NCBI GenBank assembly: GCA_964445985.1
Contig: CAYUMU010000001.1
Location: 71,596-135,595, forward strand
Reading direction: 5' to 3'
Length of the DNA stretch: 64,000 bases
Origin: an uncultured Pirellulales bacterium
GTDB lineage: Bacteria > Planctomycetota > Planctomycetia > Pirellulales > S012-138
The notes under the pieces were generated by a model. It worked only from the letters and a program-made list of their open reading frames with translations, ran no database searches and was not told the origin of the DNA. A program made the position numbers and the translations under genes. Below are positions 15,992 through 34,585 of the stretch, piece by piece (positions within the stretch are counted from its first letter, which is position 1; every line of letters starts with the position of its first letter).

Positions 15992-17167
15992 ATGGACGAC
16001 AAAAAGAAAATGACGGTCGCCGAAATTCTGGCGGCCGCTCGCAAGTCGGATAGCGGCAATGCGGCCGGTTCGGGCGGCGCTAGCGCCAATGAGGGAGTTG
16101 CTGCTTCCCAGCCTGCGCCCCCTCCGGCGAGTCCTCCAGCATCGGACACGCCCGGCGCTAAGCCCAGCGTGGCGGAAATTTTGGCCAAGGCCCGAGCAGA
16201 GAAGCAAGCGGCGGCCGCTCCCAAGGCCGAGTCTTCCGCCCCCGAAACTGCCAAGCCTGCCCCGCCCGCCACTGCGGGTGGCAAGCCCAGCGTCGCCGAC
16301 ATTCTGGCCGCCGCAAGGCAGGCAAAAGGTGGCGCGGCTGCAACGCCTGCCGCGGCCGAATCGACCCCCGCAAAGGCGCCCGCCGCCAAGTCGGTGGAAA
16401 AGAAGGCAGTTGTACCCGAGGAACCGGTTGCTCCGGCAGGTCCGCCGCAAACGGCGAGCATTTTGGCTGCGGCCCGAGCCGACAAGAAACGTGGTCCGCT
16501 CAGCAAAGCCGAGGCTGGGATCGCGAGCGAACCTCGGGAAAATCGCGTTGAGAACGCCCTGGCAAAGCCAGGTAAGCCAGCAGTTCCGCCGATGCCCGCC
16601 AAGCCGGCCTACGCCCAAAAGAAACCGGCCGACGCCAAGAAGGTCGATCAGGGTCGTCGTGGCGTATTGGCAATGATGGGGGCGATGGTCGGCACGTCAC
16701 TCGGCATCGGGTTTGGCGCTCTGGCTGGCACCTTCGGTCTGTGGACCCTTGGGTTCGCCCGCTTCATGTTCCCCAACATTCTCACGGAACCGCCGAGCCA
16801 GTTCAAAATTGGTCAGCCATCGGACTTCCCGCCTGGCATGGTCGATGAGCGGTTCAAGGCGGCATTCGGCGTCTGGGTGGTCAATGGCGAATACAACGGC
16901 CAGCAGTTGATCTACGCCTTGAAGACCGTCTGTACACACTTGGGCTGCACGCCCAACTGGCTGGAAAGCGAACAAAAATTCAAGTGCCCCTGCCACGGCA
17001 GCGGTTTTTACGTCGATGGGATTAATTTTGAAGGCCCCGCCCCGCGTCCCCTGGAGCGGTATGCGATCCGACTGGCCGATGACGGTCAGATTGAGATCGA
17101 TAAGAGCCGCGTCTTTCAAGAAGAAAAAGGTGAGTGGACCAATTCTGACAGTTTTGTCGTGGTCTAA
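15992..17167 (+). CDS. Rieske [2Fe-2S] subunit of a cytochrome bc-type complex, with a ~220-aa Ala/Pro-rich N-terminal extension
   Basis: Rieske boxes CTHLGCTPNW … CPCHGSGF. A twin-arginine motif (QGRRGVLAMMGAMVG) is followed by a TM helix at aa ~222-250. The extension carries 4 repeats (see the repeat feature). Confidence 0.9.
   Translation: MDDKKKMTVAEILAAARKSDSGNAAGSGGASANEGVAASQPAPPPASPPASDTPGAKPSVAEILAKARAEKQAAAAPKAESSAPETAKPAPPATAGGKPSVADILAAARQAKGGAAATPAAAESTPAKAPAAKSVEKKAVVPEEPVAPAGPPQTASILAAARADKKRGPLSKAEAGIASEPRENRVENALAKPGKPAVPPMPAKPAYAQKKPADAKKVDQGRRGVLAMMGAMVGTSLGIGFGALAGTFGLWTLGFARFMFPNILTEPPSQFKIGQPSDFPPGMVDERFKAAFGVWVVNGEYNGQQLIYALKTVCTHLGCTPNWLESEQKFKCPCHGSGFYVDGINFEGPAPRPLERYAIRLADDGQIEIDKSRVFQEEKGEWTNSDSFVVV
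16013..16477 (+). repeat. four copies of a 10-aa motif [ST][VA][AS][ED]ILA[AK]AR inside the Rieske N-terminal extension
   Basis: The copies are TVAEILAAAR (aa 8-17), SVAEILAKAR (59-68), SVADILAAAR (100-109) and TASILAAARA (154-163). Copies 2 and 3 also repeat at the DNA level (aagcccagcgt[g/c]gc[g/c]ga[a/c]att[t/c]tggcc). Confidence 0.75.
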
Positions 17168-17381
17168 GCACTGACTGCAAGGAGCGGAGCGCCGGACCCT
17201 GCTCCGCATGGGGATGGGTGGGTTTGCCTGCTCTGTTCACTGCCGCTGGAATTGGTTTTGAAGGTGGGGCGCGCCGTTCGACCGGCCGGCTCATGCAAAT
17301 GGAATGTTTTCGGATCCAACCGCTAGGGTTGGGCTGACTAGATATCGCCACGCTAATCTCGAGATTCATTAGGATAGGCCG

Positions 17382-18158
17382 ATGCCGTCAATTGGCGAAA
17401 CGGTTCGCAATAGCCAGATCTGGAAGAGTGTTTTCCGTCACCCGATGCCGCTAGATCGGCGAAATCGCATCGTGGTGATGCTGACGAACTTCTTCCTGCA
17501 CTTGCACCCGGTTTCGATCAAGAAGCAGGGGATCGCTCTCAGTTACACCTGGTGCATGGGTGGAGTGACCTTCTTCCTGTTTCTGGTGGAAACGGTCACC
17601 GGCGTGCTGCTGATGTTTTACTATCGGCCCACGCTTGAATGGGCTTATGCCGATATTCAGGCCCTCCGCGATGTAACCAGTTTAGGCATCTTGCGCGAAC
17701 TCCATCGCTGGGGCGCCCATGCCATGGTCATCACCGTCTGGCTGCATATGTATCGCGTGTTTCTGACCGGAAGTTATAAACCGCCCCGCGAGTTCAACTG
17801 GGTGGTCGGGGTAATTCTGCTGCTGCTCACGCTGCTGCTTTCGTTCACGGGCTATTTGCTGCCGTGGGATCAGTTGGCGATCTGGGCTATTACCGTGGGT
17901 TCCAACATGGCTCGGGCCACTCCGTTGCTTGGCAGCGAAGGTCCGGGGCAGCAGTTATTAACGGTGGGCGGAATTGACATGATCACCAGCGGGTCGGACG
18001 CCCGATTTGGTTTGCTTGGCGCTCGATTTGTGGGCGAAGAAACGCTGAACCGGTTCTACGTGTTGCACTGCATCGCCATTCCCTTGGCGGTGGCCATGCT
18101 CCTTGCGATCCACTTTTGGCGAGTTCGCAAAGACGGCGGCATCAGCGGTCCACTGTAA
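17382..18158 (+). CDS. cytochrome b, N-terminal (b6-like, haem-binding four-helix) subunit
   Basis: 258 aa with the typical cytochrome b/b6 N-terminal pattern (…[27 protein letters not shown]…[38 protein letters not shown]…[14 protein letters not shown]). Conserved His pairs sit in helices B and D. Confidence 0.9.
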
Positions 18159-18269
18159 TTTTGCAATTCAGTAACCAAGGTCACGGCAGACAACTTGAAG
18201 ATAGGTCTCCTCCCCCCAGAGCAACCTGCTGGCGAACAATAGCCCAGGTTGGCGAGAACGGATCCTAGA

Positions 18270-19601
18270 ATGCACGGCGCAGATCCCAGCTTCATAGTAC
18301 GCGTCACCACCTTTTTAGGTACTTATTACCTGATTTTGGCGGTGATGAACGCCGTTGCGGCGGCCATGTTTCAATACCAATGGAAGCGAACGCCGGCAGC
18401 CCTGGTTTCGCTGGCTGCTGCTTTTCTGTTCGTGCTGCTGGCGGCCTTTTCTTGGAACGGCACTTTGCCCTCGCTGGGGCACGGCATTGAGTCCCTTGCC
18501 ACATCGCTGCTTTCCGGCAAGTGGGGCGCGGTTAGTTATACCATTGGCACCACGGCGGCACTGGTCATCTTGTATCTCGGACGCCGCTTTTTCGCCAAGC
18601 CAGTGGTCGCCTGGGCCGGCTTGAATCTCACGCTGTTGTTGATGGGCCTGTCGATGACGAATCCCTATTTCTGGGAAATCGTCTCCAAGCCCGACAACGT
18701 GCCGATCGTGATGCTGGTCTTGCTGCTCGGCTTTTTCACCTGGCTGGCCACGTGGAAGGCCGTGCAGAACGACGATCGGGCCAGAGAAGGTCTGCCGCCG
18801 CTTGAGAAAGACGATAGCGAAAAGGTTCTGGTATGGCCGGACCTGGTCTATACCGAGCTGATCTGCATGGTGTTATTGACGGCCTTCTTGCTGGTGTGGG
18901 CAATATTGCTCAAGGCGCCTCTCGAGGAACCCGCCAGCAGCGTCAAAACGCCGAACCCTTCCAAGGCGCCCTGGTACTTTCTGGGGCTGCAAGAAATGTT
19001 GGTGTACTTCGATCCCTGGATGGCGGGTGTTTTGCTCCCCAGCTTGGTGATCGTGGGCCTGATGGCCATCCCCTACCTGGATTTCAATAAAGAAGGCAAC
19101 GGTTATTACACCATCGAGAAACGCAAGTTCGCCTATGTGATGTTCCAGGTGGGCTTCTTGGAATTGTGGGTCACCTTGATCGTGCTTGGCACGTTTCTGC
19201 GGGGGCCAAACTGGAACTTCTTCAGTCCATTTGAGTACTGGGACGCCCACAAGGTCGAAGCCGGCAATAACGTGAATTTGTCCGACTATTTTTGGATCAA
19301 CTTCATGGGCGCCAGCGTGCCGCGGGTGACCTCCGATATGGGCGTGATGGAATCGTTGCTCGTCATCTTTAAACGAGAAGGGTTGGGTATTATTTTATGC
19401 CTGGGCTACTTGATCGTCTTGCCACCGCTCATGGCGGCGACGGTGCTCCGGCCCTTCTTTGTGAAGATGGGGTTCATCCGCTACATGGTTCTGGCGAACT
19501 TGATCCTGTTTATGGCGGCCCTGCCTATCAAGATGGTGCTGCGGTGGACGTTGGACTTGAAGTACCTCGTCTACATCCCTGAGTTTTTCATCAATATATA
19601 A
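18270..19601 (+). CDS. cytochrome b C-terminal / subunit IV-like polytopic membrane subunit (extended)
   Basis: Multi-TM protein containing the PetD/cyt b C-terminal motif KAPWYFLGLQEMLVYF. The start is uncertain (TTG at 18249 or ATG at 18270). Confidence 0.8.
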   Translation: MHGADPSFIVRVTTFLGTYYLILAVMNAVAAAMFQYQWKRTPAALVSLAAAFLFVLLAAFSWNGTLPSLGHGIESLATSLLSGKWGAVSYTIGTTAALVILYLGRRFFAKPVVAWAGLNLTLLLMGLSMTNPYFWEIVSKPDNVPIVMLVLLLGFFTWLATWKAVQNDDRAREGLPPLEKDDSEKVLVWPDLVYTELICMVLLTAFLLVWAILLKAPLEEPASSVKTPNPSKAPWYFLGLQEMLVYFDPWMAGVLLPSLVIVGLMAIPYLDFNKEGNGYYTIEKRKFAYVMFQVGFLELWVTLIVLGTFLRGPNWNFFSPFEYWDAHKVEAGNNVNLSDYFWINFMGASVPRVTSDMGVMESLLVIFKREGLGIILCLGYLIVLPPLMAATVLRPFFVKMGFIRYMVLANLILFMAALPIKMVLRWTLDLKYLVYIPEFFINI

Positions 19602-19672
19602 CCGACGGCTTGGCGATTGACCCAAGCCGCTCGCTTCCCGATCAGGCCCCATGATGGCTCCGGAGAGGGCAA

Positions 19673-22600
19673 ATGCCCGCTAACGAACAGACCTGGCGCA
19701 ACCAAACTCAGATGCACTTGATCTTTGGGATCTCTTCCGCGGCCATGTTGGTGGCTACGGTGTGGATGATCGCCGACGATCACAATCGTGAGTGGAAGAC
19801 CTACCAGGAAACCTACTACGAAGATCTCGAAACCTGGACGTTGCAATCGCGCATCTACCAGCAGATGGCCACCGATTATGAAGGCGGTCGTCGCGCGCGT
19901 GCGGACGTGCTTCAACAACAGAAAGAACTGGCCCCGCCGGCCGAGTTCGGCGAACTGTTTTTGTTGTATGTCGCGCGGCACGCCGTGATGCAGCAGGCCA
20001 GTGCCGCCGCTGGCAGGCCAGGGTCCGAAAACGCGCTCCCCGATGCGTCCCCCGGAACCGACCGTTTCTATGCGGCGAACCAGACTGCCGCCATCGCCTT
20101 GGAATTGAACGCCGAGGCGGCAGATTTGGCCGTCAACTTGGAAATCGACCGCCGCTCGGTCGATCTGGAAGCTGACCCACGGCGAAGAGCCATCTTGGAA
20201 GGCCAAATTGCAGCGGCTGAAAAGCGGCTGGCCACGGTTCAACAACGGCTTCAACAGCAGGTTCAAGCAGCGGCTCCCCTGGTTCGCGAACTACTGGAAG
20301 AATACAGGCAACAGTTGCCAGCCAACCGCGGTCGTTTGCTGGGCGACGTACAACAGTCCCTGGAAGTCGCCGTGCAACAGCCTTCGGCCGAGCATCGAGC
20401 GCAGTTGACTCGGGAACTGGATGCCATCGTCAAGAATGCGCTGTTCAGCGAAGAAGTTCTTCAACGCGACCTCAAGTTCCTCCGCGCCGAGCTCGATGAA
20501 GCTCGCAGCGCTTTCAACCTGGCCTTTGGCAACGATGCCCCCCAGGCCGAGCTCGGCGCTCTCCAAGCCAAAGCCGATCAGTTCACCGCCCGCACCAGCG
20601 ACCTGAATGCTCGCTACGAAGCCGCCAAGACGTATCGCGAACGTTTGGAGAAATCGCGAGACGCGGTCAATGCTCGGGTGAATGTGGCGCAAAAGAGTTT
20701 GGACCGCTACGAAACAGAAATGGAAAGATTGCGAGCGCAGCTGGCTCGCAGTAAGCCGGGCGTGGGCAAAGACCTGATCAACATGCCCATCCTCGACGCC
20801 TTTAGCAAAGAAGGCGATATCAAGGTTCGCCAGATTTGGCTGCCAGAGCTAACCATCAACTTCAACTTCAAAGATGTCGCCCGCTTCGACCGCTGCATGA
20901 CGTGCCACTTGGGCATCGAGAAAACGGCGCCGGGATCGGCGGTCGCCGCCGGTTATCCAGCCGAACAGATCTTGCCCGGCCTGATGCTGGAAAGCCCTGC
21001 CGAGCCGCCCCTGCTATCGCCGGCCGAAGGCGAAGACCCGAACTCCTCGTCGGCCCTGTTGATCCCCAACGAGTTGGACCTGGAAACGCAGAATCAGTTG
21101 TTGCTGCAGGCTTACGGTTTCAGCCTGGCCCCCCAGGGCGTTTTCCGTGCCGATGACGCCACGATTGAGTTCGTGATGGATCGGAGCCGAGCTGCCAACG
21201 CGCGACTGCAACGCGGCGACGTCATCCTCAGCATCGGCTCTCGAGAAGTGCTCAATCGCGGCGAGGCCGCCGACCTCCTGCTGGGCGTGGTCCAATGGGG
21301 ACAACCGCTCGAGCTGAAGATTCGTCGTGGCGTACCCCAGCCTTATAGCACGCACCCCCGCTTGGATTTGTTCGGCGCTTCCACCAGCCCTCACTCCTTC
21401 GCGGCGATTGGCTGCACCGTTTGCCACGATGGCCAAGGTAGCGCCACGGCCTTCAAATGGGCGTCCCACACGCCCAACACGGTGGAAGAAGAACACCGTT
21501 GGACGCGTGAGTATGGTTGGTTCAACAACCACCACTGGATTTTTCCGATGATGCCCAAGCGGTTCTCGGAAAGCCTGTGCCTGAAGTGCCATCACGACGT
21601 GGTGGAGCTTTCCCCCAGCGAACGGTTTGCCGAGCCTCCCGCCCCGAAACTTATGGAAGGCTTCAATCTGGTTCAAGAGTACGGCTGCTTCGGCTGCCAC
21701 GAAATCAAAGGCTTTGATGGGCCGAATCGGCGCATCGGTCCCGACCTGCGGCTGGAGCCCGGCTATGCTTTCGCCGGATTGGCGCTCTTTGCGAATCCCA
21801 AGCTCTATACCGACGCAACCTATCGCAAAGATCATCCGGAGAGCTATCAACAGCGTCTCCAGCAGATCTTCGGCCCCAACGTCGTGGTTAAAGACGGTAA
21901 GCCTGGTTTCAAAAATGAGTCGCCCCGCGGCGATGAAGAGTTGGCTGCCTTCGCCGAACAGTTGCAGAAGCTGGCAGGCGACATTGTGGACAACCCCTCC
22001 AACGACACCTCGCGGCGGCGGTTGGTGCAGTTGCTGCAAGAAGACGAAGCGCGTGCCCGAAATCCGATTTCGCTCGAGCCTCCTTTCCTCAGCGCCGAAC
22101 AACACCGCCTGGCTCTCGTCCTGGCCGACACCGATACCCCAGGCGCCATGCGGCCGGTTGGCCCAAGCTTGCGATATCTGTCGCATAAGCTCAGCAAGGA
22201 GTTCGTGTTCAGCTGGATTCAGAATCCTCGCGATTTCCGCCCACAAACTAAAATGCCGCGATTCTTTGGCCTGGATGAACACCTGCTCCAGAAGGAAGTT
22301 TCAGAAGGCGAGGCATTCGGCAATACGGTCGATGAACCAGCTCACACGCACAAGATGGAAGCCATCGAGATCAGGGCGCTTACCGAGTACCTGCTGACTT
22401 CGAGCCAGCCCTTCATTCAGGCCGTGCAGCCAGAAGGTGTCACCGAGCAGGCTTCGGCGGAGCGTGGTAAAGACCTGTTCGCCAATCGTGGCTGCCTGGC
22501 TTGCCACCAGCACACGGCCTTCCCCGATCCGTTGCTCAAGGCCGACCAAGGACCCGATCTGTCGAACATCGGCACCAAGTTGCAAACCGGGGGCCAAGAA

Positions 22601-24613: not shown

Positions 24614-24898
24614 ACCCGCCAGCAGCGGGCGTCTGTGACAATATGCCGCAGAACCGCCAAGGCAGGATTGGATATGATGACAGCAGGCAACAGAGTTTGA
24701 CGCGCAAAACGGGGGATCGGCTCGTATAATGGCAGGCCGATCGCGTGGCGCGATCGACGGCGTTGGTCACTCCATCAGGCGAGTCGGCGTCGTCCCACCC
24801 CCCGCAGGATTGTCACCCCAGGACCAACGGGTGAGACCTCAACGACCCTTGTGCCACCCGGGAAGAGTGGTTGCGAGCGAGTCAGGAGAAACTGGAAG

Positions 24899-25663
24899 AT
24901 GCTACATCGATTGTTTATCAAACCAGCCGCGATCTTCGGTTTTGCCCTCTGGACGATTTCCGGCGTTGCTTCCGCGGCCGATTGGGCCAACTTGAAGGCC
25001 ACGTTCGTCTATGATGGCAAGCCTCCCGTCGCCAAGCCCATTCAAATCAATAAGGACCAGGAAGCCTTTGGCAATCTGGGACTGGTCGACGAATCTTTGC
25101 TGGTTAGCAAAGATGGCGGCATTGCCAACATTGTGGTCTATGTTCGCACGCCCGATGTCGCAGTGAGCCCGGAGATCGAGAAAAACATCAAGCCCCAGGT
25201 AAAGTTTGATAACAATGGCGGCCGATTCGAGCCGCACATTCTGCCGGTCTGGATCGAGAAGCAGCAGGTTGTACTGCACAACAGCGACCCCGTTCCCCAC
25301 AATGCCAACCTGCAACCGTTGGGCGACGAAGGCAAGAACCCCCTGCTCCCACCCAACACCGAAGTGGATCACCGGTTCAATCGCCAGCAAATCATTCCGG
25401 TGCCTGTAACCTGCAACATTCATCCCTGGATGAAGGGCTACATTCTCCCGCGCAGTAACCCCTATGTGGCTATTAGCGATAAAGATGGCAACCTGGTTCT
25501 GGAAAACCTGCCGGCCGGAACCGAACTGGAATTCCAGGTTTGGCACGAACGGGCCGGCTATTTGGATTTTGGCGCATGGGCTCGAGGGCGCGTCACCATG
25601 AAGCTCAAGGCCGGCGACAACGACCTGGGCAAGATCAAGGTGCCCCCGGCCGTTTTTAAGTGA
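24899..25663 (+). CDS. secreted cupredoxin-like (amicyanin-type loop) protein with a C-terminal CarboxypepD_reg-like beta-sandwich, paralogue A
   Basis: ATG at 24899 (AGGAGA upstream) followed by a signal peptide. Putative type-1 Cu ligands: NSDPVPHN … CNIHPWM (C-x2-H-x2-M, as in amicyanin CTPHPFM). C-terminal ISDKDGNLVLENLPAGTELEFQVWHE. Confidence 0.7.
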   Translation: MLHRLFIKPAAIFGFALWTISGVASAADWANLKATFVYDGKPPVAKPIQINKDQEAFGNLGLVDESLLVSKDGGIANIVVYVRTPDVAVSPEIEKNIKPQVKFDNNGGRFEPHILPVWIEKQQVVLHNSDPVPHNANLQPLGDEGKNPLLPPNTEVDHRFNRQQIIPVPVTCNIHPWMKGYILPRSNPYVAISDKDGNLVLENLPAGTELEFQVWHERAGYLDFGAWARGRVTMKLKAGDNDLGKIKVPPAVFK

Positions 25664-25816: not shown

Positions 25817-26713
25817 ATGTATTTCAAGAAGATAATCACCATCGCCTTCGCAACTGTCCTGCTGGCCGCCACGGGATGCGGTGATAGTTCCCGCTCCAGC
25901 CGGGCTCCGGCTCCCAACCGCGCCGTGGTTGACAATCTCCGCGGCAAGACTGGTGGCAGTGAAAGCGGCGACGAAAGCGCTGGCGGCGGCATGGACAAAG
26001 CCGACGGTTGGGGCACCCTCAAGGGCCGCCTGGTTTACGGCGGCAGCCCTCCGCCGCAATTGCCCGTATCCGTTACCAAAGACGTGCAATTCTGCGGTCA
26101 GCATCAATTGCTGGAGCAGACCTTGGTGATTGCTCCCGATGGCGCCGTGAAAGACATCGTGCTCTACCTCCGCACACGCAATCCCAAGGTGCATGAATCG
26201 TACGAAGCCAAGATCAAGGAACCCATTGTTTTCGACAATCACAACTGCCAGTTTGAGCCGCATGTTCTGCTCGTGCATACCGGCCAGCCCATGCAGATCC
26301 TTAACTCCGACCCGGTTGCCCACAATACCAGCGTGCAATTGCAGCGCAATCCATCCTTCAGCACGGGCGTGGCTTCCAACCAGCGCGTGGTGCAAACCAT
26401 GGATGTGGCCGAAACCTATCCCGCACCCGCGGCTTGCAATGTGCATCCTTGGATGGGTGGCTGGATCGTTGTGAAAGACAACCCCTACATGGCGGCTTCC
26501 GACGACAAAGGCAACTTCGTTATCGAGAACCTTCCCGCTGGCGTGGAGCTTGAGTTTCAAGTTTGGCACGAAAAGGGATCCGGCAACCAGGGAAGCGTGG
26601 ATGGCTCGAGTTCCAACGCTAAAATCAGCAGCGGTCGATTGAAGGTGACCATCCCCAAAGACGGCGAGTTGGATCTTGGAGACATCACGGTTCCCGCCTC
26701 GTCGTTCCGGTAA
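25817..26713 (+). CDS. cupredoxin-like lipoprotein, paralogue B of 24899-25663
   Basis: ATG at 25817 gives MYFKKIITIAFATVLLAATGC (lipobox). Same conserved blocks as paralogue A: NSDPVAHN, CNVHPWM, SDDKGNFVIENLPAGVELEFQVWHE. Confidence 0.7.
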   Translation: MYFKKIITIAFATVLLAATGCGDSSRSSRAPAPNRAVVDNLRGKTGGSESGDESAGGGMDKADGWGTLKGRLVYGGSPPPQLPVSVTKDVQFCGQHQLLEQTLVIAPDGAVKDIVLYLRTRNPKVHESYEAKIKEPIVFDNHNCQFEPHVLLVHTGQPMQILNSDPVAHNTSVQLQRNPSFSTGVASNQRVVQTMDVAETYPAPAACNVHPWMGGWIVVKDNPYMAASDDKGNFVIENLPAGVELEFQVWHEKGSGNQGSVDGSSSNAKISSGRLKVTIPKDGELDLGDITVPASSFR

Positions 26714-26849: not shown

Positions 26850-28160
26850 ATGGAAAAATTGACCCACAACGTGCAGGGGAGGGCGCCCATGCTTCAGGCA
26901 AAGGTGACTCGCGCCTCGCGTCCAAATCTTGCGCGCTGGAACTTGGCGATCTGGAACATTGCGATCTGGTGTGGAATCAGCGTCTGCCTGGCCGCGTCGG
27001 GTTGCGGCAGCAGCGATGTTCAGTTTGGCCTCAACCGGTTGATTGTGCCGCCGACCAATCTGGTGGTGACCAGCGAAGAAAGTGTTCTGGCCCAGCAGAA
27101 TCTCTCCACCGCGGAGGTGGAGGAAAAGCTGGACGCCTTGGATGAAACGTATCGCCGCAATGAAGAAATGTTGACCAGCGCGCTGGTTGCCGTCTTCGGC
27201 ACGCCCGATGATCCTTTCGCTTGGCCTGGCCTGGGGCTCGACATTCGCAAGCTGCGTATGGCCGCCGGCCCCACGGGGGTGCGCGGCGTTACCCGTGGCC
27301 TCTACCGCGAACACTGCGTGCATTGTCATGGCATCAATGGCGACGGGCTGGGTCCCACCGCGCGATTCCTCAATCCGTATCCGCGAAACTTTCAGCTCGG
27401 TGTGTTCAAGTTCACGTCCACCAATCAGGGCCGCAAGCCCACCATGGGCGATTTGCATCAAACTCTTCGCGATGGTATCCCTGGCACCGCAATGCCTTCC
27501 TTCAAGTTGAATTCGACCGCTGAAGTGGAAGCCTTGGCCGAATACGCCAAATACCTTTCAATTCGCGGTGAAGTGCAATTGCAATTGATGACCGCCTTTC
27601 AAGCGGCAGGCGGGGCCGTGGATGAGAAAACGCTCGAGGAAGAATTGAATGTCGTCCTGGAACTTGTCGGCAAGTCCTGGGGCGATGCACCCGAATATGT
27701 CGTGATCCCCGCGCAACGTCCCCCATTTCGCAGCGAGCAAGAAAAGCTGGACTCCATTGCCCGCGGCAAGGCGATCTTTCTCAATGCCGGCAAGGCAAAT
27801 TGCCTGGGCTGTCATGGCCCCACCGGTCTAGGAGATGGCGGCCAGGTCGATTACGACGTGTGGACGAAAATGCAGCGTGAGCAGGTCGCCCGTTTTCCAG
27901 GGTTGGCCAACTATTGGCCCCTTCCCGTCCGCCCCGCCGAAGCCCGCAATTTGCATCTAGGCATTTATCGCGGTGGAAGACGCCCCGTGGACTTGTATCG
28001 CAGAATTTACGCCGGCATCAAGGGAACGCCCATGCCGGCTCAAGGCCAAACGCTCAAGTCCGACGAAATTTGGAGCGTGGTGGATTATGTGATGTCGTTG
28101 CCGTACCAGCATGAATCGCCCCAGGCGATCGCTCCCACGGCACACCGAGTTGGCCTGTAA
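26850..28160 (+). CDS. dihaem c-type cytochrome, probable lipoprotein
   Basis: Two CxxCH motifs in class-I contexts (YREHCVHCHGINGDGLGP… and KANCLGCHGPTGLGDG…). TM/lipobox-like segment (IWCGISVCLAASGCGSS). The start is uncertain (ATG at 26850 or 26892; the ORF-track start is 26676). Confidence 0.8.
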   Translation: MEKLTHNVQGRAPMLQAKVTRASRPNLARWNLAIWNIAIWCGISVCLAASGCGSSDVQFGLNRLIVPPTNLVVTSEESVLAQQNLSTAEVEEKLDALDETYRRNEEMLTSALVAVFGTPDDPFAWPGLGLDIRKLRMAAGPTGVRGVTRGLYREHCVHCHGINGDGLGPTARFLNPYPRNFQLGVFKFTSTNQGRKPTMGDLHQTLRDGIPGTAMPSFKLNSTAEVEALAEYAKYLSIRGEVQLQLMTAFQAAGGAVDEKTLEEELNVVLELVGKSWGDAPEYVVIPAQRPPFRSEQEKLDSIARGKAIFLNAGKANCLGCHGPTGLGDGGQVDYDVWTKMQREQVARFPGLANYWPLPVRPAEARNLHLGIYRGGRRPVDLYRRIYAGIKGTPMPAQGQTLKSDEIWSVVDYVMSLPYQHESPQAIAPTAHRVGL

Positions 28161-28248
28161 GAGATATCAACCGAAGACTCGCGGAGTGGCCGCCGATTTC
28201 CCCACGGCAAACAGGCGGCGCCGCATAGCACCCCCTAGGGAGTAGCAC

Positions 28249-28998
28249 GTGGGACGTTTTTGGAGTTTGTTGTTTCTGCTAGTGCCGGTGCTGGGTGTCG
28301 CCGCGTTCCTGGCTGCGCCGGTCTACCATCATTGGTTGCCCGACGACTGGTCATCGCATGGCCACCGTATTGACCAGCTTTGGTACTTCATTCTGTACCT
28401 CACGGGCGCGGTGTTCGTGGCGACAGAAGTTGTGCTGTTTTGGTTCATGTGGAAATACGACGGCGCAAAGAACAAGCAACCGGCCGAATACATGCACGGC
28501 AGTCACAATCTCGAAGTGATTTGGACGCTGATCCCCGCGGCCACGCTGCTGTTTATTGCGATCATGCAGATGTCGGCCTGGGAAGAGTCCAAGATGGATA
28601 AACCTCATCTGCCCCCCTTGGCCCGCGTGACGGCCAGGCAGTTCGAATGGCGAATTCAATATCCCGGCGCCGATGGCAGGCTAGATACGTCCGATGATCT
28701 CTACACGGTGAACGACCTTGCGGTCCCGCTCAACGAAGAAATCATCGTCGACCTGGAGAGCATGGATGTGCTCCACAGCTTTTTCCTGCCCAACATGCGC
28801 GTGAAGCAAGATGCCGTGCCCGGCAGCGTAATCCCGGTCTGGTTCCGGCCCACCCGGGCTGGCGAATACGACATTGTCTGCGCCGAACTCTGCGGCTGGG
28901 GCCACTACAAAATGAAGGGTCGACTTTTGGTTCTCGCTCGACCTGAATACGAACAATGGCTTGAGAACTTGCGGATTCAGCAAGAGGCAACTCAATGA
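28249..28998 (+). CDS. ctaC: cytochrome c oxidase subunit II (CuA subunit, no fused cytochrome c domain)
   Basis: GTG start with AGGGAG 6 nt upstream and two N-terminal TM helices. CuA motif: DVLHSFFLP … CAELCGWGHYKM (H…C-x-E-x-C-G-x2-H-x2-M). Confidence 0.95.
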   Translation: MGRFWSLLFLLVPVLGVAAFLAAPVYHHWLPDDWSSHGHRIDQLWYFILYLTGAVFVATEVVLFWFMWKYDGAKNKQPAEYMHGSHNLEVIWTLIPAATLLFIAIMQMSAWEESKMDKPHLPPLARVTARQFEWRIQYPGADGRLDTSDDLYTVNDLAVPLNEEIIVDLESMDVLHSFFLPNMRVKQDAVPGSVIPVWFRPTRAGEYDIVCAELCGWGHYKMKGRLLVLARPEYEQWLENLRIQQEATQ

Positions 28999-30803
28999 GC
29001 AGCACGGTGGCGGGAGCCCACGCGCACGGCGATGCCCACGGCCCCCAAGAGCATTCGCTCGGGTTTTTACAAAAGTACGTCTTCTCCCTCGACCATAAGG
29101 TGATCGGGATTCAGTTCCTGTTTTCCACCTTGCTATGGTTTGTGGTCGGAGGCTTGCTCGCCTTGGCGGTTCGCTGGCAAGTGGCCTGGCCGTGGAGCAA
29201 TATGCCCATCGTGGGCGACATGCTATTCTCGGGAGAAGGCGGACAAATATCGCCCGAGTTCTATACCATGCTGTTTACCATGCATGCCTCGGTGATGATC
29301 TTTTTCGTGATCATCCCCATCCTCGCGGGGGCATTCGGTAATTTTCTCATTCCGCTGATGATCGGCGCGGATGATATGGCGTTTCCGGTGCTCAACATGC
29401 TCAGCTACTGGGCCATGTGGCCGGCCTTCTTCTGCATGATCTTGGGCTTTTTTGTGGAAGGCGGAGCCGCCTCGGCCGGGTGGACGGCATACCCCACCCT
29501 GTCATCAGTTCCGGCGGCGGCGCCGGCCAGCGGTCAGGGGCAAACGCTCTGGCTGCTGGGACTAATTTTCGTCGGCATTTCATCCATGATGGGCTCGGTT
29601 AATTACTTAACCACCGTGATTCAGATGCGTGCGCCTGGCATGACCATGTTCCGCTTGCCAATGACCATCTGGGGGATGTTCATTACGGCCGTGCTGCAAG
29701 CATTCGCGCTGCCCGTGCTCACCGCCGCGCTCTTCATGCAATTGATGGATCGCGAACTCGGAACCGGCTTTTTCGCCCCCATGGGCCTGATTGTGAATAA
29801 CACCACCGCCGGCGCCGGCGGCGGGCAGCCCCTGCTGTGGCAACACTTGTTTTGGTTCTATTCGCACCCCGCCGTGTACATCATGATCCTGCCCGCGATG
29901 GGCATGGTTTCCGACATGATCTCCTGCTTCGCCCGCAAACCACTGTTCGGTTACAAACCGATGGTGTATTCCCTCTCGGCAATCGCCGGGCTGGGGTTCA
30001 TCGTGTGGGGGCACCATATGTTCATGTCGGGCATGAACCCTGCGCTCGGGCTCACGTTCATGGTCTCCACCATGATGATCGCCCTGCCCAGCGCGGTGAA
30101 AACCTTTAACTGGCTTGGCACCATTTGGGGTGGACGGATTCAATTTACCACCGCGATGCTGTTCGCCCTCTCGTTTGTGTCCATGTTTATCATTGGCGGC
30201 CTGTCAGGCATCTTCATGGCCGCCACGCCCGTCGATATCTTCATTCACGATACTTACTTCATCGTGGCCCACATTCACTACGTACTCTTTGCCAGCACGG
30301 CGATGGCGGTCTTCGGCGCAATCTATTTTTGGTTCCCCAAAATGTTCGGTCGTATGATGAATGAAACGCTCGGCAAGATTCATTTCTTCCTGACGTTTAT
30401 CTTCCTCAACGGCACCTTCTTCGCCATGCATATTCTCGGGGCCGGCGGCTTTCCCCGGCGGCTCGCCGATCCATATCACTACAAGACCTTCGCCCACCTC
30501 CAAGGTCTGAACGAGTTCATTACCATCTGCGCACTGCTGATGGGCCTGGTCCAAGTCATTTTTGTCTTCAACTTTGTCTACAGCCTGTTTGCCGGTCCTC
30601 GCTGCGGGCGGAATCCCTGGCGCAGCAATACTCTGGAATGGACCGCGCCGAGCCCTCCGGGACACGGCAACTTTGACTTCCAACCCATCGTCTACCGGGG
30701 ACCTTACGAATACTCCTCGCCAGAAGTAGACGAAGACTATTACCCCCAAACGCAGCCGCCCCCCGAAGGCGTTGAACCGCGCCCCGAAGGCGGGCACCAC
30801 TAG
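28995..30803 (+). CDS. ctaD: cytochrome c oxidase subunit I (haem-copper oxidase catalytic subunit)
   Basis: ATGA overlap with the subunit II stop. Canonical motifs WFYSHPAVYIMILPAMG, GHHMF and HDTYFIVAHIHYVLF. 602 aa, 12+ TM helices. Confidence 0.97.
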   Translation: MSSTVAGAHAHGDAHGPQEHSLGFLQKYVFSLDHKVIGIQFLFSTLLWFVVGGLLALAVRWQVAWPWSNMPIVGDMLFSGEGGQISPEFYTMLFTMHASVMIFFVIIPILAGAFGNFLIPLMIGADDMAFPVLNMLSYWAMWPAFFCMILGFFVEGGAASAGWTAYPTLSSVPAAAPASGQGQTLWLLGLIFVGISSMMGSVNYLTTVIQMRAPGMTMFRLPMTIWGMFITAVLQAFALPVLTAALFMQLMDRELGTGFFAPMGLIVNNTTAGAGGGQPLLWQHLFWFYSHPAVYIMILPAMGMVSDMISCFARKPLFGYKPMVYSLSAIAGLGFIVWGHHMFMSGMNPALGLTFMVSTMMIALPSAVKTFNWLGTIWGGRIQFTTAMLFALSFVSMFIIGGLSGIFMAATPVDIFIHDTYFIVAHIHYVLFASTAMAVFGAIYFWFPKMFGRMMNETLGKIHFFLTFIFLNGTFFAMHILGAGGFPRRLADPYHYKTFAHLQGLNEFITICALLMGLVQVIFVFNFVYSLFAGPRCGRNPWRSNTLEWTAPSPPGHGNFDFQPIVYRGPYEYSSPEVDEDYYPQTQPPPEGVEPRPEGGHH

Positions 30804-30814
30804 TAAATCCGTTT

Positions 30815-30836
30815 CGCGAAGTCTCGCTACTTCGCG
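30815..30836 (+). other. intercistronic stem-loop between ctaD and the haem A synthase gene
   Basis: Perfect 8-bp inverted repeat cgcgaagt / acttcgcg with a 6-nt loop, 12 nt after the ctaD stop. There is no U-run, so it is more likely an mRNA processing or stability element than a terminator. Confidence 0.35.
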
Positions 30837-30837
30837 G

Positions 30838-32007
30838 ATGCTCGAATTTGGCTGGTCCGTTGGAAACGCCCTCCAGTCTAGCAGCGAACGCTTCGCCCCT
30901 AAAAACCCTTTCAGAAACTGTGTTGTGACGTCAACTTCCTCCGCGCCGCTAAGTCCCTGGCCTCATCGCATGGCGGTGCTGCTGGTGTGTCTTACCTATC
31001 CATTGATTTGGATCGGGGGGCTCGTCACTACTTTTAAGGCAGGCATGGCGTTTCCTGATTGGCCCACGTCTGGTGGATACAACCCACTGGCCTACCCCCT
31101 CGATGAATGGTGGCATGGTCCATTTGATATGTTCATTGAGCATGGCCATCGGCTGTTTGCCATTCTCGTGGGGCTTGTCACCATTGGCTTGGTTGTCGTG
31201 TTCTTCGCCAAAGAGCGACGACGTTGGGTGCGCTGGCTGGCATTGGCCGCATTCGCCGCCGTATGCCTGCAAGGCGGCATTGGTGGACTGCGAGTCGTGC
31301 TCGATCAACGCCGCGTGGCGATGATCCACGGGTGCGTGGGACCGGCCTTTTTTGCGTTTGCGGTCATTCTGGCCGTGGTCACTTCGCGCCGCTGGCGAGA
31401 TTCAACCGGCATCCCGGCTTCTCCTCAAGCAACTCGTCTGCGTCGGTTGGCCGTGGCCACCGCTGCCTTGGCCTATGCCCAATTGGTATTGGGAGCGTTC
31501 GTAAGGCATGTGCCCGAAACCGGAAGTGCTGGCGAATTTCAAGCGGTCGTCATCTTTCACTTGCTCGGCGCGGTTGTGCTCGCGGCGCACACCATCGGCC
31601 TTGGCGTGCTGGTGCTCAAACGCAACTATCCCGGTGTAGGCTTGCGGTGGTCGGCCTGGAGCCTGGTTACTGTTTTAGGAATTCAAATTGGTTTGGGAAT
31701 CGCCGCCTGGATCGCCAAGTACGGGTTTCCAGGCTGGTTTCAGCAGTTCTCGTTTCCAGCCAATCATCTGATCGTGGCAGGCGGTCCTTGGCAGTACGGT
31801 CTGGCCACGGCTCACATGGCAACCGGATCACTGTTCCTGGCGGCCGCGGTGATGCTGGCCACGCGGGCGCTGCGATTCTTGCGAGTTGAACGCATGCAAA
31901 CGGAAAGCATCAACGCGACGACTAAACTCCCCCTGGCCGATTCGGTAGGCCGCGGTGGCATCACCGACATAAAACGTGTTCGATCGCTCGCGGAGGCGGC
32001 GCCATGA
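30838..32007 (+). CDS. ctaA: haem A synthase (COX15/CtaA family)
   Basis: Polytopic membrane protein with a COX15-like N-terminal region (…LIWIGGLVTTFKAGMAFPDWPT…MFIEHGHRLFA…) and conserved His-containing helices. The start is uncertain (ATG at 30838, GTG at 30922/30925; the ORF-track start at 30772 overlaps ctaD). Confidence 0.8.
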   Translation: MLEFGWSVGNALQSSSERFAPKNPFRNCVVTSTSSAPLSPWPHRMAVLLVCLTYPLIWIGGLVTTFKAGMAFPDWPTSGGYNPLAYPLDEWWHGPFDMFIEHGHRLFAILVGLVTIGLVVVFFAKERRRWVRWLALAAFAAVCLQGGIGGLRVVLDQRRVAMIHGCVGPAFFAFAVILAVVTSRRWRDSTGIPASPQATRLRRLAVATAALAYAQLVLGAFVRHVPETGSAGEFQAVVIFHLLGAVVLAAHTIGLGVLVLKRNYPGVGLRWSAWSLVTVLGIQIGLGIAAWIAKYGFPGWFQQFSFPANHLIVAGGPWQYGLATAHMATGSLFLAAAVMLATRALRFLRVERMQTESINATTKLPLADSVGRGGITDIKRVRSLAEAAP

Positions 32008-32915
32008 GTGTTACCACGACCACGCTGGCCGTGGCAGATGCCCGACCCATCTGGACCAGGGCCAATTCGTATTTGGAACTAGCCAAGCCGCGAATTGCGG
32101 TCCTGGTGCTGATTACCGTTGCCGTTTCCGCGGTGCTCGCCTCGGGCGGTTTCCCCAACTCGCTGATCTTGCTGCACACCTTGCTGGGCACGGCCATTGT
32201 GGCCGCCAGCGCCAGTGCGCTCAATCAATGGATTGAGCAAGATAGCGACGCGCTCATGGCCCGCACTGCCGATCGCCCGCTTCCCTCGGGCAGGCTGGCG
32301 TCGCGCGAGGTGTTGTTGCTCGGGTTACTAGGGGCAATCGCCGGCGTTGCGTATTTGGCGGTGTTGGTGCATTGGCAAGCGGCGCTATTTGGCCTGCTGA
32401 CTTGGACCCTTTACGTTTGGGTTTATACTCCGCTCAAGTCGCGCACCACGCTGAATACGGTCGTGGGCGCCGTGGCCGGCGCCATGCCTGTTTGCATTGG
32501 CTGGAGCGCGGTGGGCGATGTCGATCTGGCGTGCCTGACCATGTTTCTGCTCGTTTACTTGTGGCAGTTTCCACACTTCATGGCCATCGCCTGGCTGTAT
32601 CGCAAACAGTATCATCAGGCCGGCATCTGGATGTTGCCCGTCGCCGACCCGCAAGGTCATCGCACCGGCGCCCAAGCGGTCGCTGGAGCCATGGCCTTGT
32701 TGCCTGTCAGTCTCATGCCCATGGTCTTGCTGCCCGTGGCTTCGTTCTACCCGCTGGGTGTATCGCTGCTAGGGTTGGGCCAGTTGTCCTGTGCCACTTG
32801 GTTCGCTCATGAGCGTTCCGACCGTTCGGCACGGTGGCTATTGCGAGCATCGTTGATATATTTGCCGGCTGTGTTGTTGCTATTGGTTTGGGGACCGCTG
32901 TACTGGCGGTCGTAA
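32004..32915 (+). CDS. ctaB: protohaem IX farnesyltransferase (haem O synthase, UbiA family)
   Basis: ATGA overlap with the ctaA stop. UbiA-type motifs (…ASASALNQWIEQDSDALMARTADRPLPSGRL… and the second Asp-rich region). About 9 TM helices. Confidence 0.92.
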   Translation: MSVTTTTLAVADARPIWTRANSYLELAKPRIAVLVLITVAVSAVLASGGFPNSLILLHTLLGTAIVAASASALNQWIEQDSDALMARTADRPLPSGRLASREVLLLGLLGAIAGVAYLAVLVHWQAALFGLLTWTLYVWVYTPLKSRTTLNTVVGAVAGAMPVCIGWSAVGDVDLACLTMFLLVYLWQFPHFMAIAWLYRKQYHQAGIWMLPVADPQGHRTGAQAVAGAMALLPVSLMPMVLLPVASFYPLGVSLLGLGQLSCATWFAHERSDRSARWLLRASLIYLPAVLLLLVWGPLYWRS

Positions 32916-32934
32916 GAAGGAGTAGGCGTTCTCC

Positions 32935-33894
32935 ATGGCACACGAGGATCACGAACACACGCATATTAAGCTGGAATACCAGCCGGCTTTGCCGCTGCGC
33001 AACGGTAAGCTGTTTATGTGGCTGTTCTTGTCGACCGAGATTATGTTCTTCGCCGCTTTGATCGGCGTGTATATCGTGATTCGCTTTGGCGCTCCGGTTT
33101 GGCCGCACCCCGCCCACGTTCACCTCAGCGAACCTACTGGCGCGTTCAACACGTTTGTGTTGATTTGCTCCAGCGTCAGCATCGTGCTCGCTTTAGAAGC
33201 CGCGCGAAGCGAAAAAACCGGCCAGGCCAAGTTATGGATGGTGGTCACCTTCTGCCTGGGGTCGCTCTTCCTGGTGGTCAAGGGATTTGAATACAACGCC
33301 AAATTTTCCCACGGCATCCACCCCAGCTTTCCCCGCAGCCGCATTTACGAGCAGCCCGACATTTACTATGCCGGCGCGGTGCGGACTCGGGTACGTGAGC
33401 TATCGGCGCCCTTGCTGGAGAAACGCGCCCAATTAGAGCAGCAAGTCAACTCACCCGATGCCGCCGACAAGCCGGCCCTGCGAACAGAGTTGAACCAAGT
33501 GGAAGAGCAATTGCGGTTTTATGACACCAATATTCTCTCAATTGCCAACAACCCGGCGGCCACCGAAGCGGAAATTGCAGCCCTGGCCGATCGAATCATG
33601 CCGCTCCCTCAGCCCCATTCGCACGATCATCGCGTGGGCTTGAATGATCAATATCCCGACTTGAAGCTTCCCGTGGTCATCCCTGGCGGAAACATGTGGG
33701 CCAGCACCTATTTTACCGTCACTGGCTTTCATGCCGTGCACGTGATTGTCGGACTGATTGCCTTCGCATTCCTCCTGCTGCCTGGTTGTCGGCTGGGGCG
33801 CGCCAACGCTGGCACCATTGAAAACGTGGCGTTGTATTGGCACTTTGTCGATCTTGTCTGGATTTTCCTGTTCCCCTTGCTGTACTTGTTCTAG
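32935..33894 (+). CDS. ctaE: cytochrome c oxidase subunit III with a ~120-aa hydrophilic insertion
   Basis: AGGAG upstream. Subunit III hallmarks: [54 protein letters not shown]. The insertion spans aa ~130-250. Confidence 0.9.
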
Positions 33895-34049
33895 GCAGGT
33901 CCGGCGCGTTCCGTTCAAACTTGAGCCAACCAACCACAACAGCAAACGAGCGCCGTAGCCCGCAACCCGTGTTGAAGCCGGCGTTGGCAATAAACACCTC
34001 CAGGACCGCATTGCGTCGCAAAGCTCCTGCCGATGGAAAGTGAGCAACC

Positions 34050-34559
34050 ATGACCAAGCATGACAGCCACGGCGACGAAGAGTACAGCACCCACGGCTAC
34101 GACGAACACCACGGCAAGCCGCACGATGTCAAGAAATACCTCTACGTATTTCTGGCTTTATGCGTGCTGACCATGATGTCGTTTTTCACGTACTCGGAAT
34201 TCTGGCCATTCCATGAGCACCCTCAGGTGGGCTGGACCTTCATGATGGCCGTGTCGCTCTCCAAAGCCCTCTTGGTGATGCTGTTCTTCATGCATCTCAA
34301 GTACGAAGCCAGTTGGAAATACGTCCTCACCATTCCGGCCAGTGTCATGTCGGTGTTCCTGGTGATCGCGCTGATCCCCGATGTTAAATGGCGCTATGAA
34401 ACCATCGTGGGTGGCCGCACGGTCAGCCCGCAGCAGGCCCAGTTCCTCGCCACGCCCGCCGATATGCAGCTATTGATCCGCGAAGAATCCACGGATGCCG
34501 ATAACGCGCATCCCGATCATGATACGCACGGCGACGCGCATCCTGATAAGGCTCACTAG
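34050..34559 (+). CDS. ctaF: prokaryotic cytochrome c oxidase subunit IV family protein with His/Asp-rich termini
   Basis: The core KKYLYVFLALCVLTMMSF…KALLVMLFFMHLKYE…VLTIPASVMSVFLVIALI matches the COX4_pro/CyoD-like pattern. The termini are rich in H/D (MTKHDSHGDEEYSTHGYDEHHGKPHD; DADNAHPDHDTHGDAHPDKAH). Confidence 0.75.
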   Translation: MTKHDSHGDEEYSTHGYDEHHGKPHDVKKYLYVFLALCVLTMMSFFTYSEFWPFHEHPQVGWTFMMAVSLSKALLVMLFFMHLKYEASWKYVLTIPASVMSVFLVIALIPDVKWRYETIVGGRTVSPQQAQFLATPADMQLLIREESTDADNAHPDHDTHGDAHPDKAH

Positions 34560-34585
34560 CCACTTCGCGCCGGAGCTTGATCTTG

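Follow-up and report, generated by a model that had tools for sequence, protein, structure and literature searches.

An APWY-type Rieske/cytochrome b complex, an octahaem cytochrome c, cupredoxins and an A2-type oxidase encoded together in planctomycetes: a likely menaquinol:O2 respiratory branch of two modules

The stretch of DNA analysed here comprises 64,000 nucleotides from an uncultured bacterium of the Pirellulales (assembly GCA_964445985.1, contig CAYUMU010000001.1, positions 71,596 to 135,595). It is called the window below, and positions are counted from its first letter. It contains a cluster of respiratory genes that encode a Rieske protein, a cytochrome b in two parts, a very large octahaem cytochrome c, two cupredoxins (cup1 and cup2), a dihaem cytochrome c, and the four subunits of a haem-copper oxidase together with its two haem synthases (Table 1). 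Judged from the sequence, it is likely that the cluster specifies a forward menaquinol:O2 respiratory branch that is built of two modules. The case is made by the components themselves, their cofactor motifs, the cupredoxin fold, the synteny in related genomes, the modular make-up of the cluster, and one natural fusion of the octahaem protein to a cupredoxin.

In the scheme that we propose, the first module would be a b6-type complex, made of the Rieske protein, a cytochrome b that holds the haems bL, bH and ci, and a subunit IV that is extended and has the motif APWY in its quinol oxidation (Qo) site. Its c-type subunit would be the membrane-anchored octahaem protein, not a cytochrome f or c1, and its carriers would be the two type-1-copper cupredoxins, one of them free in the periplasm and the other one anchored to lipid. 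The second module would consist of the dihaem c lipoprotein and an A2-type aa3 oxidase (CoxI-IV), with haem O and haem A synthases of its own. Menaquinol would be oxidised at the Qo site. The first electron would then pass from the Rieske protein through the octahaem wire to one or both cupredoxins, and from there by way of dihaem c, CuA, haem a and the a3/CuB site to O2. The second electron would go back through the haems bL, bH and ci in a Q cycle, and the proton gradient would be fed by both complexes. Menaquinone is the quinone expected of planctomycetes on general chemotaxonomic grounds. A complete quinol-to-O2 branch had been suggested in an original prediction made from the DNA letters. 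The gene set is indeed sufficient for such a branch on paper, whereas the direction of flow and the order of the carriers are what we infer from it.

The cluster consists of 13 consecutive co-directional plus-strand genes, which fill positions 15992-34559 of the window. The genes are separated by, among others, gaps of 214 bp (17168-17381) and 285 bp (24614-24898), and overlap by 4 bp at two junctions, CoxII/CoxI and CtaA/CtaB. These gaps and coupling overlaps agree with the original prediction, and so do the positions and identities of the genes, which we could support by Pfam and NCBIfam matches, by counts of the haem-binding motif CXXCH and, for the cupredoxins, by an AlphaFold model. The family matches comprise Rieske, Cytochrome_B (b6-like), Cytochrom_B_C, COX2, COX1, COX15-CtaA, UbiA, COX3 and COX4_pro. 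Start codons are ambiguous for the C-terminal part of cytochrome b (18249 or 18270), for CtaA (30772, 30838 or 30970) and for dihaem c (26850 or 26889). Open reading frames (ORFs) on the minus strand within the cluster have no Pfam match, and their codon GC pattern is the mirror image of that of the genes opposite; they are therefore regarded as shadow ORFs. The earlier description of the cluster as an island holds in the sense that the genes are contiguous and co-directional. Horizontal acquisition was considered and rejected, since the base composition of the cluster is the same as that of the rest of the window, and since the upstream superoxide dismutase and decarboxylase genes are also present in the closest relative (L087, with an octahaem protein that is 68% identical).

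Related loci were collected by a pattern scan of one genome per species, based on an alignment of the octahaem protein. Relatives turned up in no fewer than 584 genomes, and 80 of the loci were retrieved. Gene order was counted in the 58 related loci that have an octahaem gene as well as a dihaem gene and sufficient flank. A comparison of synteny had been proposed together with the original prediction, and its outcome is clear: the order is the same in all 58 loci, on one strand and with no inserted genes, and it is kept in L087 as well as in L081, a metagenome-assembled genome (MAG) of the Planctomycetales with 36% identity in the octahaem protein. The number of cupredoxin genes is variable, with two copies in 52 of the 58 loci, three in five and four in one; L081 keeps the whole cluster with a single cupredoxin gene. 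The order of the cluster is also held by L085 and L086.

More distant relatives reveal where the cluster can be divided. In four contexts with an octahaem protein of 31-32% identity, the Rieske, cytochrome b, subunit IV and octahaem genes are followed by two further genes, and there are no adjacent dihaem or cox genes. In two of these cox-less contexts, L083 and L084, the two further genes are cupredoxin homologues (E 1e-17 to 1e-29) with CxxHxxM loops, and in the two other contigs they are of matching length. In a relative with 26% identity, all that is kept is the bc genes and the gene of a 968-aa cytochrome, which has eight haem motifs. The dihaem gene lies directly 5' of coxII wherever cox genes are present, and is absent from the cox-less contexts. 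As the cupredoxins stay with the bc and octahaem genes and dihaem c occurs only with cox genes, the cluster joins two evolutionary modules, one of bc, octahaem and copper proteins, and the other one of dihaem c, cox and cta genes.

Some of the distant contexts have further genes close to the first module. In L083 (9601-12654) and L084 (9693-12746), a 1017-aa GAF/sigma-54 enhancer-binding protein is encoded on the opposite strand directly after the cupredoxin genes, and it may regulate the cox-less module in this lineage. In one distant context, a 1533-aa PQQ-repeat protein is encoded 3' of the module.

The Rieske protein begins with an N-terminal extension of about 220 residues that is of low complexity and rich in Ala, Pro and Lys. 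An RR motif and one transmembrane (TM) helix follow, and then the cluster-binding domain. The boxes for the [2Fe-2S] cluster, CxHxGC and CxCH, are present as CTHLGC...CPCHGSGF, and are kept in 56-57 of 57 loci. The extension (15992-16657) contains four repeats of the form [ST][VA][AS][ED]ILA[AK]AR, and IL..AR-like repeats are found in 54 of 57 related Rieske genes.

Cytochrome b has the His pairs 108/122 and 229/244, with b6-like spacing, and its C-terminal part is on a separate polypeptide. The closest PDB matches are the cytochromes b6 of b6f complexes (E 3.5e-45), and the top NCBIfam match is ExtP, with 265 bits under a cut-off of 290. At residue 58, the protein has CMGG, an instance of the motif CxGG for covalent haem ci, which is conserved in all of 65 loci. 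The cysteine of CxGG is taken to bind haem ci (PMC5600118), and the cytochrome b of the window is predicted to carry this haem covalently as well. The separate polypeptide, with 450 residues and about nine TM helices predicted from hydropathy, contains the core of subunit IV, and its ExtQ match scores below the ExtQ cut-off. Its Qo motif is APWY (18966-18977) in place of the canonical PEWY or PDWY. APWY is found in 69 of 71 loci, and NPSKAPWYFLGLQE in the same protein is unchanged even where the octahaem protein encoded next to it shares no more than 26-36% identity with that of the window. Judging by this motif, the complex belongs to the uncharacterised APWY clade.

The cytochrome f, or mono- or dihaem c subunit, of such complexes is replaced by the 1646-aa octahaem protein with its N-terminal anchor. 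This protein has exactly eight CXXCH motifs, all of which are invariant in alignments of 21 and of 30 homologues. Three His and five Met residues, candidates for the distal ligands, are invariant in the same alignments. With eight such ligands for eight haems, the protein has the look of a wire for electrons and not of an enzyme. Eight CXXCH motifs are present in 71 of 71 octahaem loci, and also in distant relatives of 968-1547 aa. The N-terminus and the TM helix are highly conserved, so that the protein is likely to be an integral subunit of the complex. The region of about 330 residues ahead of haem 1 is rich in Ala, Leu, Arg, Glu and Gln and poor in Pro and Gly, with weak coiled-coil and SMC matches. 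A structure model of residues 395-1590 is of moderate quality (pLDDT 69), and a Foldseek search of the PDB with this model matched only the PDZ domain. A sequence search of the PDB with the octahaem protein likewise gave domain-level matches only, and the overall architecture was matched by no chain.

A natural fusion of the octahaem protein with a cupredoxin is found in P0441, a protein of 1809 residues with eight CXXCH motifs and the copper loop CSIHPWM, encoded at 6861-12290 of L085 and at 6231-11660 of L086. The linker consists of Pro and Ala, without a signal peptide, and the gene is part of a complete cluster that retains two free cupredoxin genes. The DNA of L085 and L086 is identical over the P0441 gene, and the fusion therefore counts as one observation.

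Neither Pfam nor NCBIfam has a match to the proteins encoded by cup1 and cup2, which are 39% identical to each other. The AlphaFold model of cup1 draws on 35 homologues and is of high confidence (pLDDT 93.4); it has a cupredoxin domain first and a C-terminal beta-sandwich thereafter. Foldseek matches in the PDB include 5fc9, amicyanin, pseudoazurin, CuA domains and the purple cupredoxin of Nitrosopumilus (probability 1.00, E 1e-5 to 1e-3, target TM-score 0.65-0.74). The type-1 copper ligands His134, Cys172, His175 and Met178 (Cys-X2-His-X2-Met) are invariant in the 35 homologues. According to the model, cup1 thus has the Greek-key beta-sandwich of the cupredoxin fold, and a type-1 copper site is predicted in it. 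We take the spacing C-X2-H-X2-M to be that of the ligand loop of amicyanin. The CxxHxxM motif is present in 137 of 141 cupredoxin genes of the related loci. The cup1 protein carries a cleavable signal of Sec type but lacks an anchor, which predicts a soluble protein. The paralogue cup2 has a flexible linker of about 40 residues, and by a loose regular expression there is roughly one lipobox-bearing cupredoxin copy per locus.

The family of two-domain cupredoxins is large, with 7,906 representative clusters (50% identity, E <= 1e-10), and its domain is also found within very different proteins; proteins with the domain include P0346, P0347, P0399, P0411 and P0479. Some of the proteins with this domain have an HExxH motif that looks BlaR1/M56-like, and contain what by eye appear to be ankyrin-type repeats, and in such proteins the copper ligands are often lost. 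Another one reads as a kinase with TPR and superoxide dismutase-like parts.

Dihaem c has two CXXCH motifs, as do its counterparts in 55 of 56 loci, and matches the Pfam families Cytochrom_C and Cytochrome_CBB3. The nearest relative in the PDB is a dihaem cytochrome (6h5l_B, E 3e-26 across both domains), and the matches listed in a homologue search were close Pirellulales relatives only.

In CoxII, the CuA site is intact (H176...CAELCGWGHYKM), and CuA is found in 55 of 56 loci. By its CuA ligands, the enzyme belongs with the cytochrome c oxidases and not with the quinol oxidases. CoxII also carries a Trp in the motif FEWRIQY, at what we take to be the position of the electron-entry Trp of A-type oxidases. 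A fused cytochrome c domain, as in the caa3 enzymes of A2 type that have been studied, is absent, with no CXXCH motif in the window's protein or in any of those encoded at the 56 loci. This absence had been noted in the original prediction together with the view that the donor of the oxidase is a separate carrier, and both points gain support from the relatives: a CoxII that never has a cytochrome c domain requires a separate donor.

The closest PDB matches of CoxI are the mycobacterial CtaD proteins of bcc-aa3 supercomplexes (427 bits). In helix VI, the motif WFYSHPAVY aligns with mycobacterial FGHPEVY. The A2 signature YSHPAV thus stands in place of the HPEV of A1 enzymes, and does so in 51 of 54 loci. 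At the level of motifs, both the D-channel (DMAFPVLN) and the K-channel (SAVK) are present. The label aa3 oxidase given to the enzyme before is confirmed inasmuch as it is an A-type haem-copper oxidase, and can be refined to the A2 subtype. Between TM3 and TM4, CoxIII has a helical insertion of about 143 residues (33292-33720). Judging by the topology of five-helix homologues of subunit III, it would face the periplasm. The length of the insertion is highly variable, and the whole protein has 319 residues here and 497 in L086 (19427-20920). The termini of CoxI, CoxIII and CoxIV (28995-29040, 30780-30800, 32935-32965, 34050-34130 and 34500-34556) are rich in His, for example DNAHPDHDTHGDAHPDKAH, and could be metal-binding tails. 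Sequence searches of the PDB with the subunits encoded by the cluster identified no close solved relative for any of them.

Table 1. Features of the respiratory gene cluster and its 3' neighbour, in positions of the window
Feature	Position	Strand	Remarks
Rieske iron-sulfur protein	15992..17167	+	Pfam Rieske; cluster-binding boxes
Cytochrome b, b6-type, four helices	17382..18158	+	Pfam Cytochrome_B, 143.6 bits
Extended subunit-IV-like membrane protein	18249..19601	+	Start TTG 18249 or ATG 18270; Pfam Cytochrom_B_C; NCBIfam ExtQ, b6f subunit IV
Octahaem cytochrome c, 1646 aa	19673..24613	+	8 CXXCH
Octahaem c, single TM helix	19718-19774	+	After conserved N-terminus MPA[TN]EQTW...
Octahaem c, helical/coiled-coil region, ~330 aa	19793-20788	+	Before haem 1
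Octahaem c, PDZ domain	21110-21337	+	Between haem 1 and haems 2-8; Pfam, PDB sequence and fold matches
Exact TATAAT, candidate -10 element of an internal promoter	24725..24730	+	In the gap between octahaem and cup1 genes; conserved in L087
cup1, secreted two-domain cupredoxin, predicted type-1 copper	24899..25663	+	Sec signal ASA|A; AlphaFold2 and Foldseek
cup2, paralogue of cup1, lipoprotein	25817..26713	+	Lipobox LAATG|C; type-1 copper loop CNVHPWM
Dihaem cytochrome c lipoprotein, 436 aa	26850..28160	+	Lipobox AASG|C; public gene call starts at 26889
CoxII	28249..28998	+	NCBIfam CoxB, 152.5 bits, above cut-off
CoxI, A2-type haem-copper oxidase	28995..30803	+	Pfam COX1, 492.7 bits
CtaA, haem A synthase	30772..32007	+	Pfam COX15-CtaA; real start probably ATG 30838 or 30970; position constant in all loci
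CtaB, haem O synthase, UbiA family	32004..32915	+	Pfam UbiA, 173.9 bits; 4-bp overlap with ctaA
CoxIII, short five-TM type	32935..33894	+	Pfam COX3; top NCBIfam match actinobacterial CtaE
CoxIV, prokaryotic subunit IV	34050..34559	+	Pfam COX4_pro; His-rich N- and C-termini
ABC-transporter ATPase	34577..35509	+	Pfam ABC_tran; variable neighbour, probably not core

It had also been suggested that the cluster is co-regulated as one unit. This is no more than a possibility, and the signals in the DNA hint at an internal promoter. A consensus scan of positions 15600-35500 found no sigma-70-like promoter, compared with 6.8 +/- 2.8 in shuffled sequences. Sites resembling terminators occurred at chance level only, and the scan says nothing firm about transcription units in planctomycetes. 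The depletion of sigma-70-like sites may be due to coding constraint or to other promoter rules in planctomycetes. However, the gap ahead of cup1 contains an exact TATAAT, which the consensus scan missed because the associated TTGACG (at 24697) lies 22 nt upstream. An exact TATAAT is found at the junction of octahaem and cupredoxin genes in 5 of 70 other loci, compared with 0.15 expected, and at no other junction. The hexamer is conserved in L087, and enriched at this junction only, which makes an internal promoter ahead of cup1 plausible. The two halves of the cluster could then be regulated separately.

Other signals were less informative. A scan of positions 13000-37000 against Rfam gave no match at E <= 0.1. 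Among three intergenic stretches that were folded, a hairpin after the octahaem stop codon scored weakly better than shuffled sequences (z = -2.1) and lacks a T-run, and nothing of note was seen in the remaining two stretches. Upstream of the Rieske gene, at about 15770-15830, two non-coding blocks, ATGTGGCATTTTGTCGCACCC and TCAATCGTGTACAA, are identical in L087, with a 21-nt block that is shared with this closest relative only. A reading of ATGTGGCATTTTGTCGCACCC as a sigma-54 promoter was rejected for the loci in general, as the spacing between GG and GC is 1 nt short and the motif is found upstream of the Rieske gene in only 1 of 56 other loci.

Several points speak against the reading of the cluster as a forward respiratory branch, or limit its scope. 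The APWY cytochromes b of planctomycetes belong to a clade that has been proposed to run in reverse (Kao & Hunte 2014, PMC4122944). By a rule from the same source, the S-F signature of the window's Rieske protein predicts a mid to high potential, near +260 mV, and for a protein that oxidises menaquinol this is a high value. Blastopirellula marina has three cytochromes b (PMC4122944), and operons that combine alternative complex III (ACIII) with COX are also found in Planctomycetes (PMC4013037). Relatives may thus have other routes, and the main one could be another than the branch described here. The placing of cupredoxin before dihaem c, which we infer, is taken solely from their co-occurrence and from the one fusion. 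Finally, the internal promoter ahead of cup1 is probable enough that the two halves may be under separate regulation.

If electrons flow forward, the components could be organised in more than one way. They might form a rigid and obligate supercomplex, in which the bc complex with its octahaem subunit, the copper proteins, dihaem c and the oxidase are united in one assembly that the electrons never leave. The strict synteny would suit such an arrangement, as would the similarity of CoxI to the CtaD of mycobacterial supercomplexes, the CtaE-type CoxIII, the lack of a fused cytochrome c on CoxII, and the octahaem-cupredoxin fusion. The long helical segments of the octahaem protein (~330 aa) and of CoxIII (143-310 aa) are possible bridges, and the extra TM helices of subunit IV could also be read in this way. 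Nevertheless, we consider a rigid supercomplex rather doubtful. The cleavable Sec signal of cup1 predicts a soluble carrier between the complexes, and cup2 and dihaem c are lipoproteins with flexible linkers, as is typical of mobile tethered carriers. The module of bc, octahaem and cupredoxin genes occurs elsewhere without adjacent oxidase genes, and the extra helices of subunit IV are retained there. The number of cupredoxin copies varies from 1 to 4. A supercomplex of the actinobacterial type is further disfavoured by the dihaem gene, which adjoins coxII and not the bc genes, and is absent where the bc genes lack cox. The predicted set of one secreted and two lipid-anchored carriers suits tethered shuttles no less than it suits a rigid supercomplex, and we lean towards the former.

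A bolder version of the forward reading would see in the cluster an undescribed respirasome that is the main O2 route of aerobic planctomycetes. It would comprise a b6-like APWY complex that runs forward, in contradiction to the reverse proposal, an eight-haem wire, blue-copper proteins and a lipid-anchored dihaem c, and it would be tied to the A2 oxidase by periplasmic helical arms of the octahaem protein and CoxIII. We offer this as a speculation that is unlikely to be right in all its parts.

Alternatively, the cluster could be a reverse or bidirectional hub, comparable to the rus and petI systems of Acidithiobacillus ferrooxidans. Dehydrogenases of the periplasm, or an inorganic donor, would then supply the octahaem, copper and dihaem carriers with electrons. 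The larger part would run downhill to the oxidase, and a smaller one would be driven uphill by way of the APWY bc complex and reduce menaquinone. The APWY Qo site and a Rieske protein of mid or high predicted potential have been argued to be marks of reverse complexes, but the reverse proposal for the clade is based on a single gene neighbourhood in Geobacter and not on biochemistry (PMC4122944). Linkage to a terminal oxidase is what would be expected of a forward complex III. Several class-I-like domains of the octahaem protein could gather electrons, the PQQ-repeat protein is found after the module in one distant context, and relatives possess ACIII and further bc complexes that could serve forward flow. 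However, no gene for an outer-membrane cytochrome, a porin or a dehydrogenase is conserved in the cluster among the loci compared. The combination of cupredoxin, dihaem c and aa3 oxidase resembles the rus operon. Against a hub, the cluster is conserved across an order of aerobic heterotrophs. Taken together, we regard a reverse or bidirectional hub as improbable. It is also conceivable that the cupredoxins carry no electrons and serve in the periplasm as chaperones or stores of copper, from which CuA and CuB receive their metal. Their place beside the oxidase and the lack of a recognised Sco, PCuAC or CtaG gene inside the cluster would fit this, but it is very improbable, as the ligands His/Cys-X2-His-X2-Met in such a fold make up the classic type-1 site of electron transfer, the genes remain with bc and octahaem where no oxidase genes follow, and one copy is fused to the octahaem protein.

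A forward menaquinol:O2 branch thus remains the reading that we prefer. The main interest of the cluster lies in an APWY complex wired to an oxidase, in an uncurated family of cupredoxins, and in a unique octahaem subunit. APWY-type Rieske/cytochrome b complexes are widespread, but none had been characterised as of 2014 (PMC4122944), and we found no later characterisation in a literature search. Here, such a complex is wired directly to a terminal oxidase, in aerobes that can be cultured, and the direction of flow is therefore directly testable. The two-domain cupredoxins are a large family without Pfam or NCBIfam curation, and a new architecture is seen in the octahaem cytochrome, which combines a coiled coil with a PDZ domain and stands where cytochrome f or c1 would be expected. 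As the cluster is conserved across the Pirellulales and their relatives, it is likely to be one of the major routes by which a group that is abundant in water and soil respires oxygen. Recognition of the two modules should improve the metabolic annotation of planctomycete genomes.

The genes that flank the cluster encode housekeeping proteins, among them a YTV-repeat protein with a domain that we take to be specific to planctomycetes. Close upstream, a Fe/Mn superoxide dismutase is encoded on the minus strand (13314-13958), in a neighbourhood that is shared with the closest relative. Downstream, the ABC-transporter ATPase gene follows CoxIV in eight related loci, and is absent in three where there is room for it. 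No adjacent permease gene was recognisable within positions 34577-36100 of the window; in L081, an ABC-2 permease follows. Further away, the minus strand encodes a 1438-aa secretin with six Secretin_N repeats (3810-8126) and a bacterial homologue of the MATCAP / DUF1704 tyrosine carboxypeptidases (42124-43662, 438.8 bits).

No account of this cluster in aerobic planctomycetes came to light in a literature search. As a whole it would work in the manner of a complex III-IV chain, and parts of it can be compared with several known systems. The actinobacterial bcc-aa3 system (QcrCAB and CtaCDEF; PDB 6adq, 7rh5) resembles the proposed branch in that it is a menaquinol-to-O2 chain, has a CoxII without cytochrome c, and bridges to CuA by a dihaem c. 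It also provides the best PDB match to CoxI, and the short CoxIII is of its CtaE type. In contrast to this system, the cluster encodes a split cytochrome b (b6 and subunit IV) with the CxGG motif for haem ci and an APWY Qo site, an octahaem protein anchored at its N-terminus, and two interposed cupredoxins. The dihaem lipoprotein goes with the oxidase genes and not with qcr, and the oxidase is of A2 (YSHPAV) and not A1 (HPEV) type. Linkage of bc and oxidase genes is found in actinobacteria as well.

With the b6f complexes and the b6c complexes of Firmicute type, the first module shares the split into b6 and subunit IV, the b6-like His spacing and the Cys of CxGG, and with b6f, where the acceptor is plastocyanin, also the proposed use of a cupredoxin as the acceptor. 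It differs in that a 1646-aa octahaem protein takes the place of cytochrome f or of the small c subunit, subunit IV has about six additional TM helices, the Qo motif is APWY and not PEWY or PDWY, and the cupredoxins have an extra C-terminal domain.

Within the same phylum, the anammox bacterium Kuenenia has b6f-like complexes with a b6-like cytochrome b, a protein resembling subunit IV and a multihaem c subunit; in these Rieske/cytochrome b complexes, a hexa- or octahaem c replaces cytochrome f (PMC12954380). Unlike them, the complex described here has no NAD(P) oxidoreductase or HAO-like subunit, and occurs in aerobic lineages, where it is linked to an O2 reductase and to cupredoxins. The APWY clade, among whose listed members are Planctomycetes (PMC4122944), and the Geobacter ExtOPQS complex (NCBIfam NF040969-71) have the APWY Qo site in common with it, and ExtP and ExtQ are the best NCBIfam matches of cytochrome b and subunit IV. 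However, both scores are below the respective cut-offs, and a clade proposed to run in reverse stands in contrast to a complex that is hard-wired to a terminal oxidase here.

The ACIII-caa3 clusters of Bacteroidetes ('COX operon type a-I', PMC4013037) likewise place a quinol oxidoreductase with multihaem c beside an A-type oxidase, and are read as a compact quinol-to-O2 chain. ACIII differs from the present complex by the lack of a Rieske/cytochrome b core, and these clusters have no cupredoxins and usually a CoxII with fused cytochrome c. Finally, the rus operon of Acidithiobacillus ferrooxidans (cyc2-cyc1-coxBACD-rus) brings a cupredoxin, a dihaem c-type cytochrome and an aa3 oxidase together, as is the case here. 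A. ferrooxidans differs in that its electrons come from Fe(II) by way of an outer-membrane cytochrome, and in that its bc1 complex (petI) is encoded elsewhere and runs in reverse.

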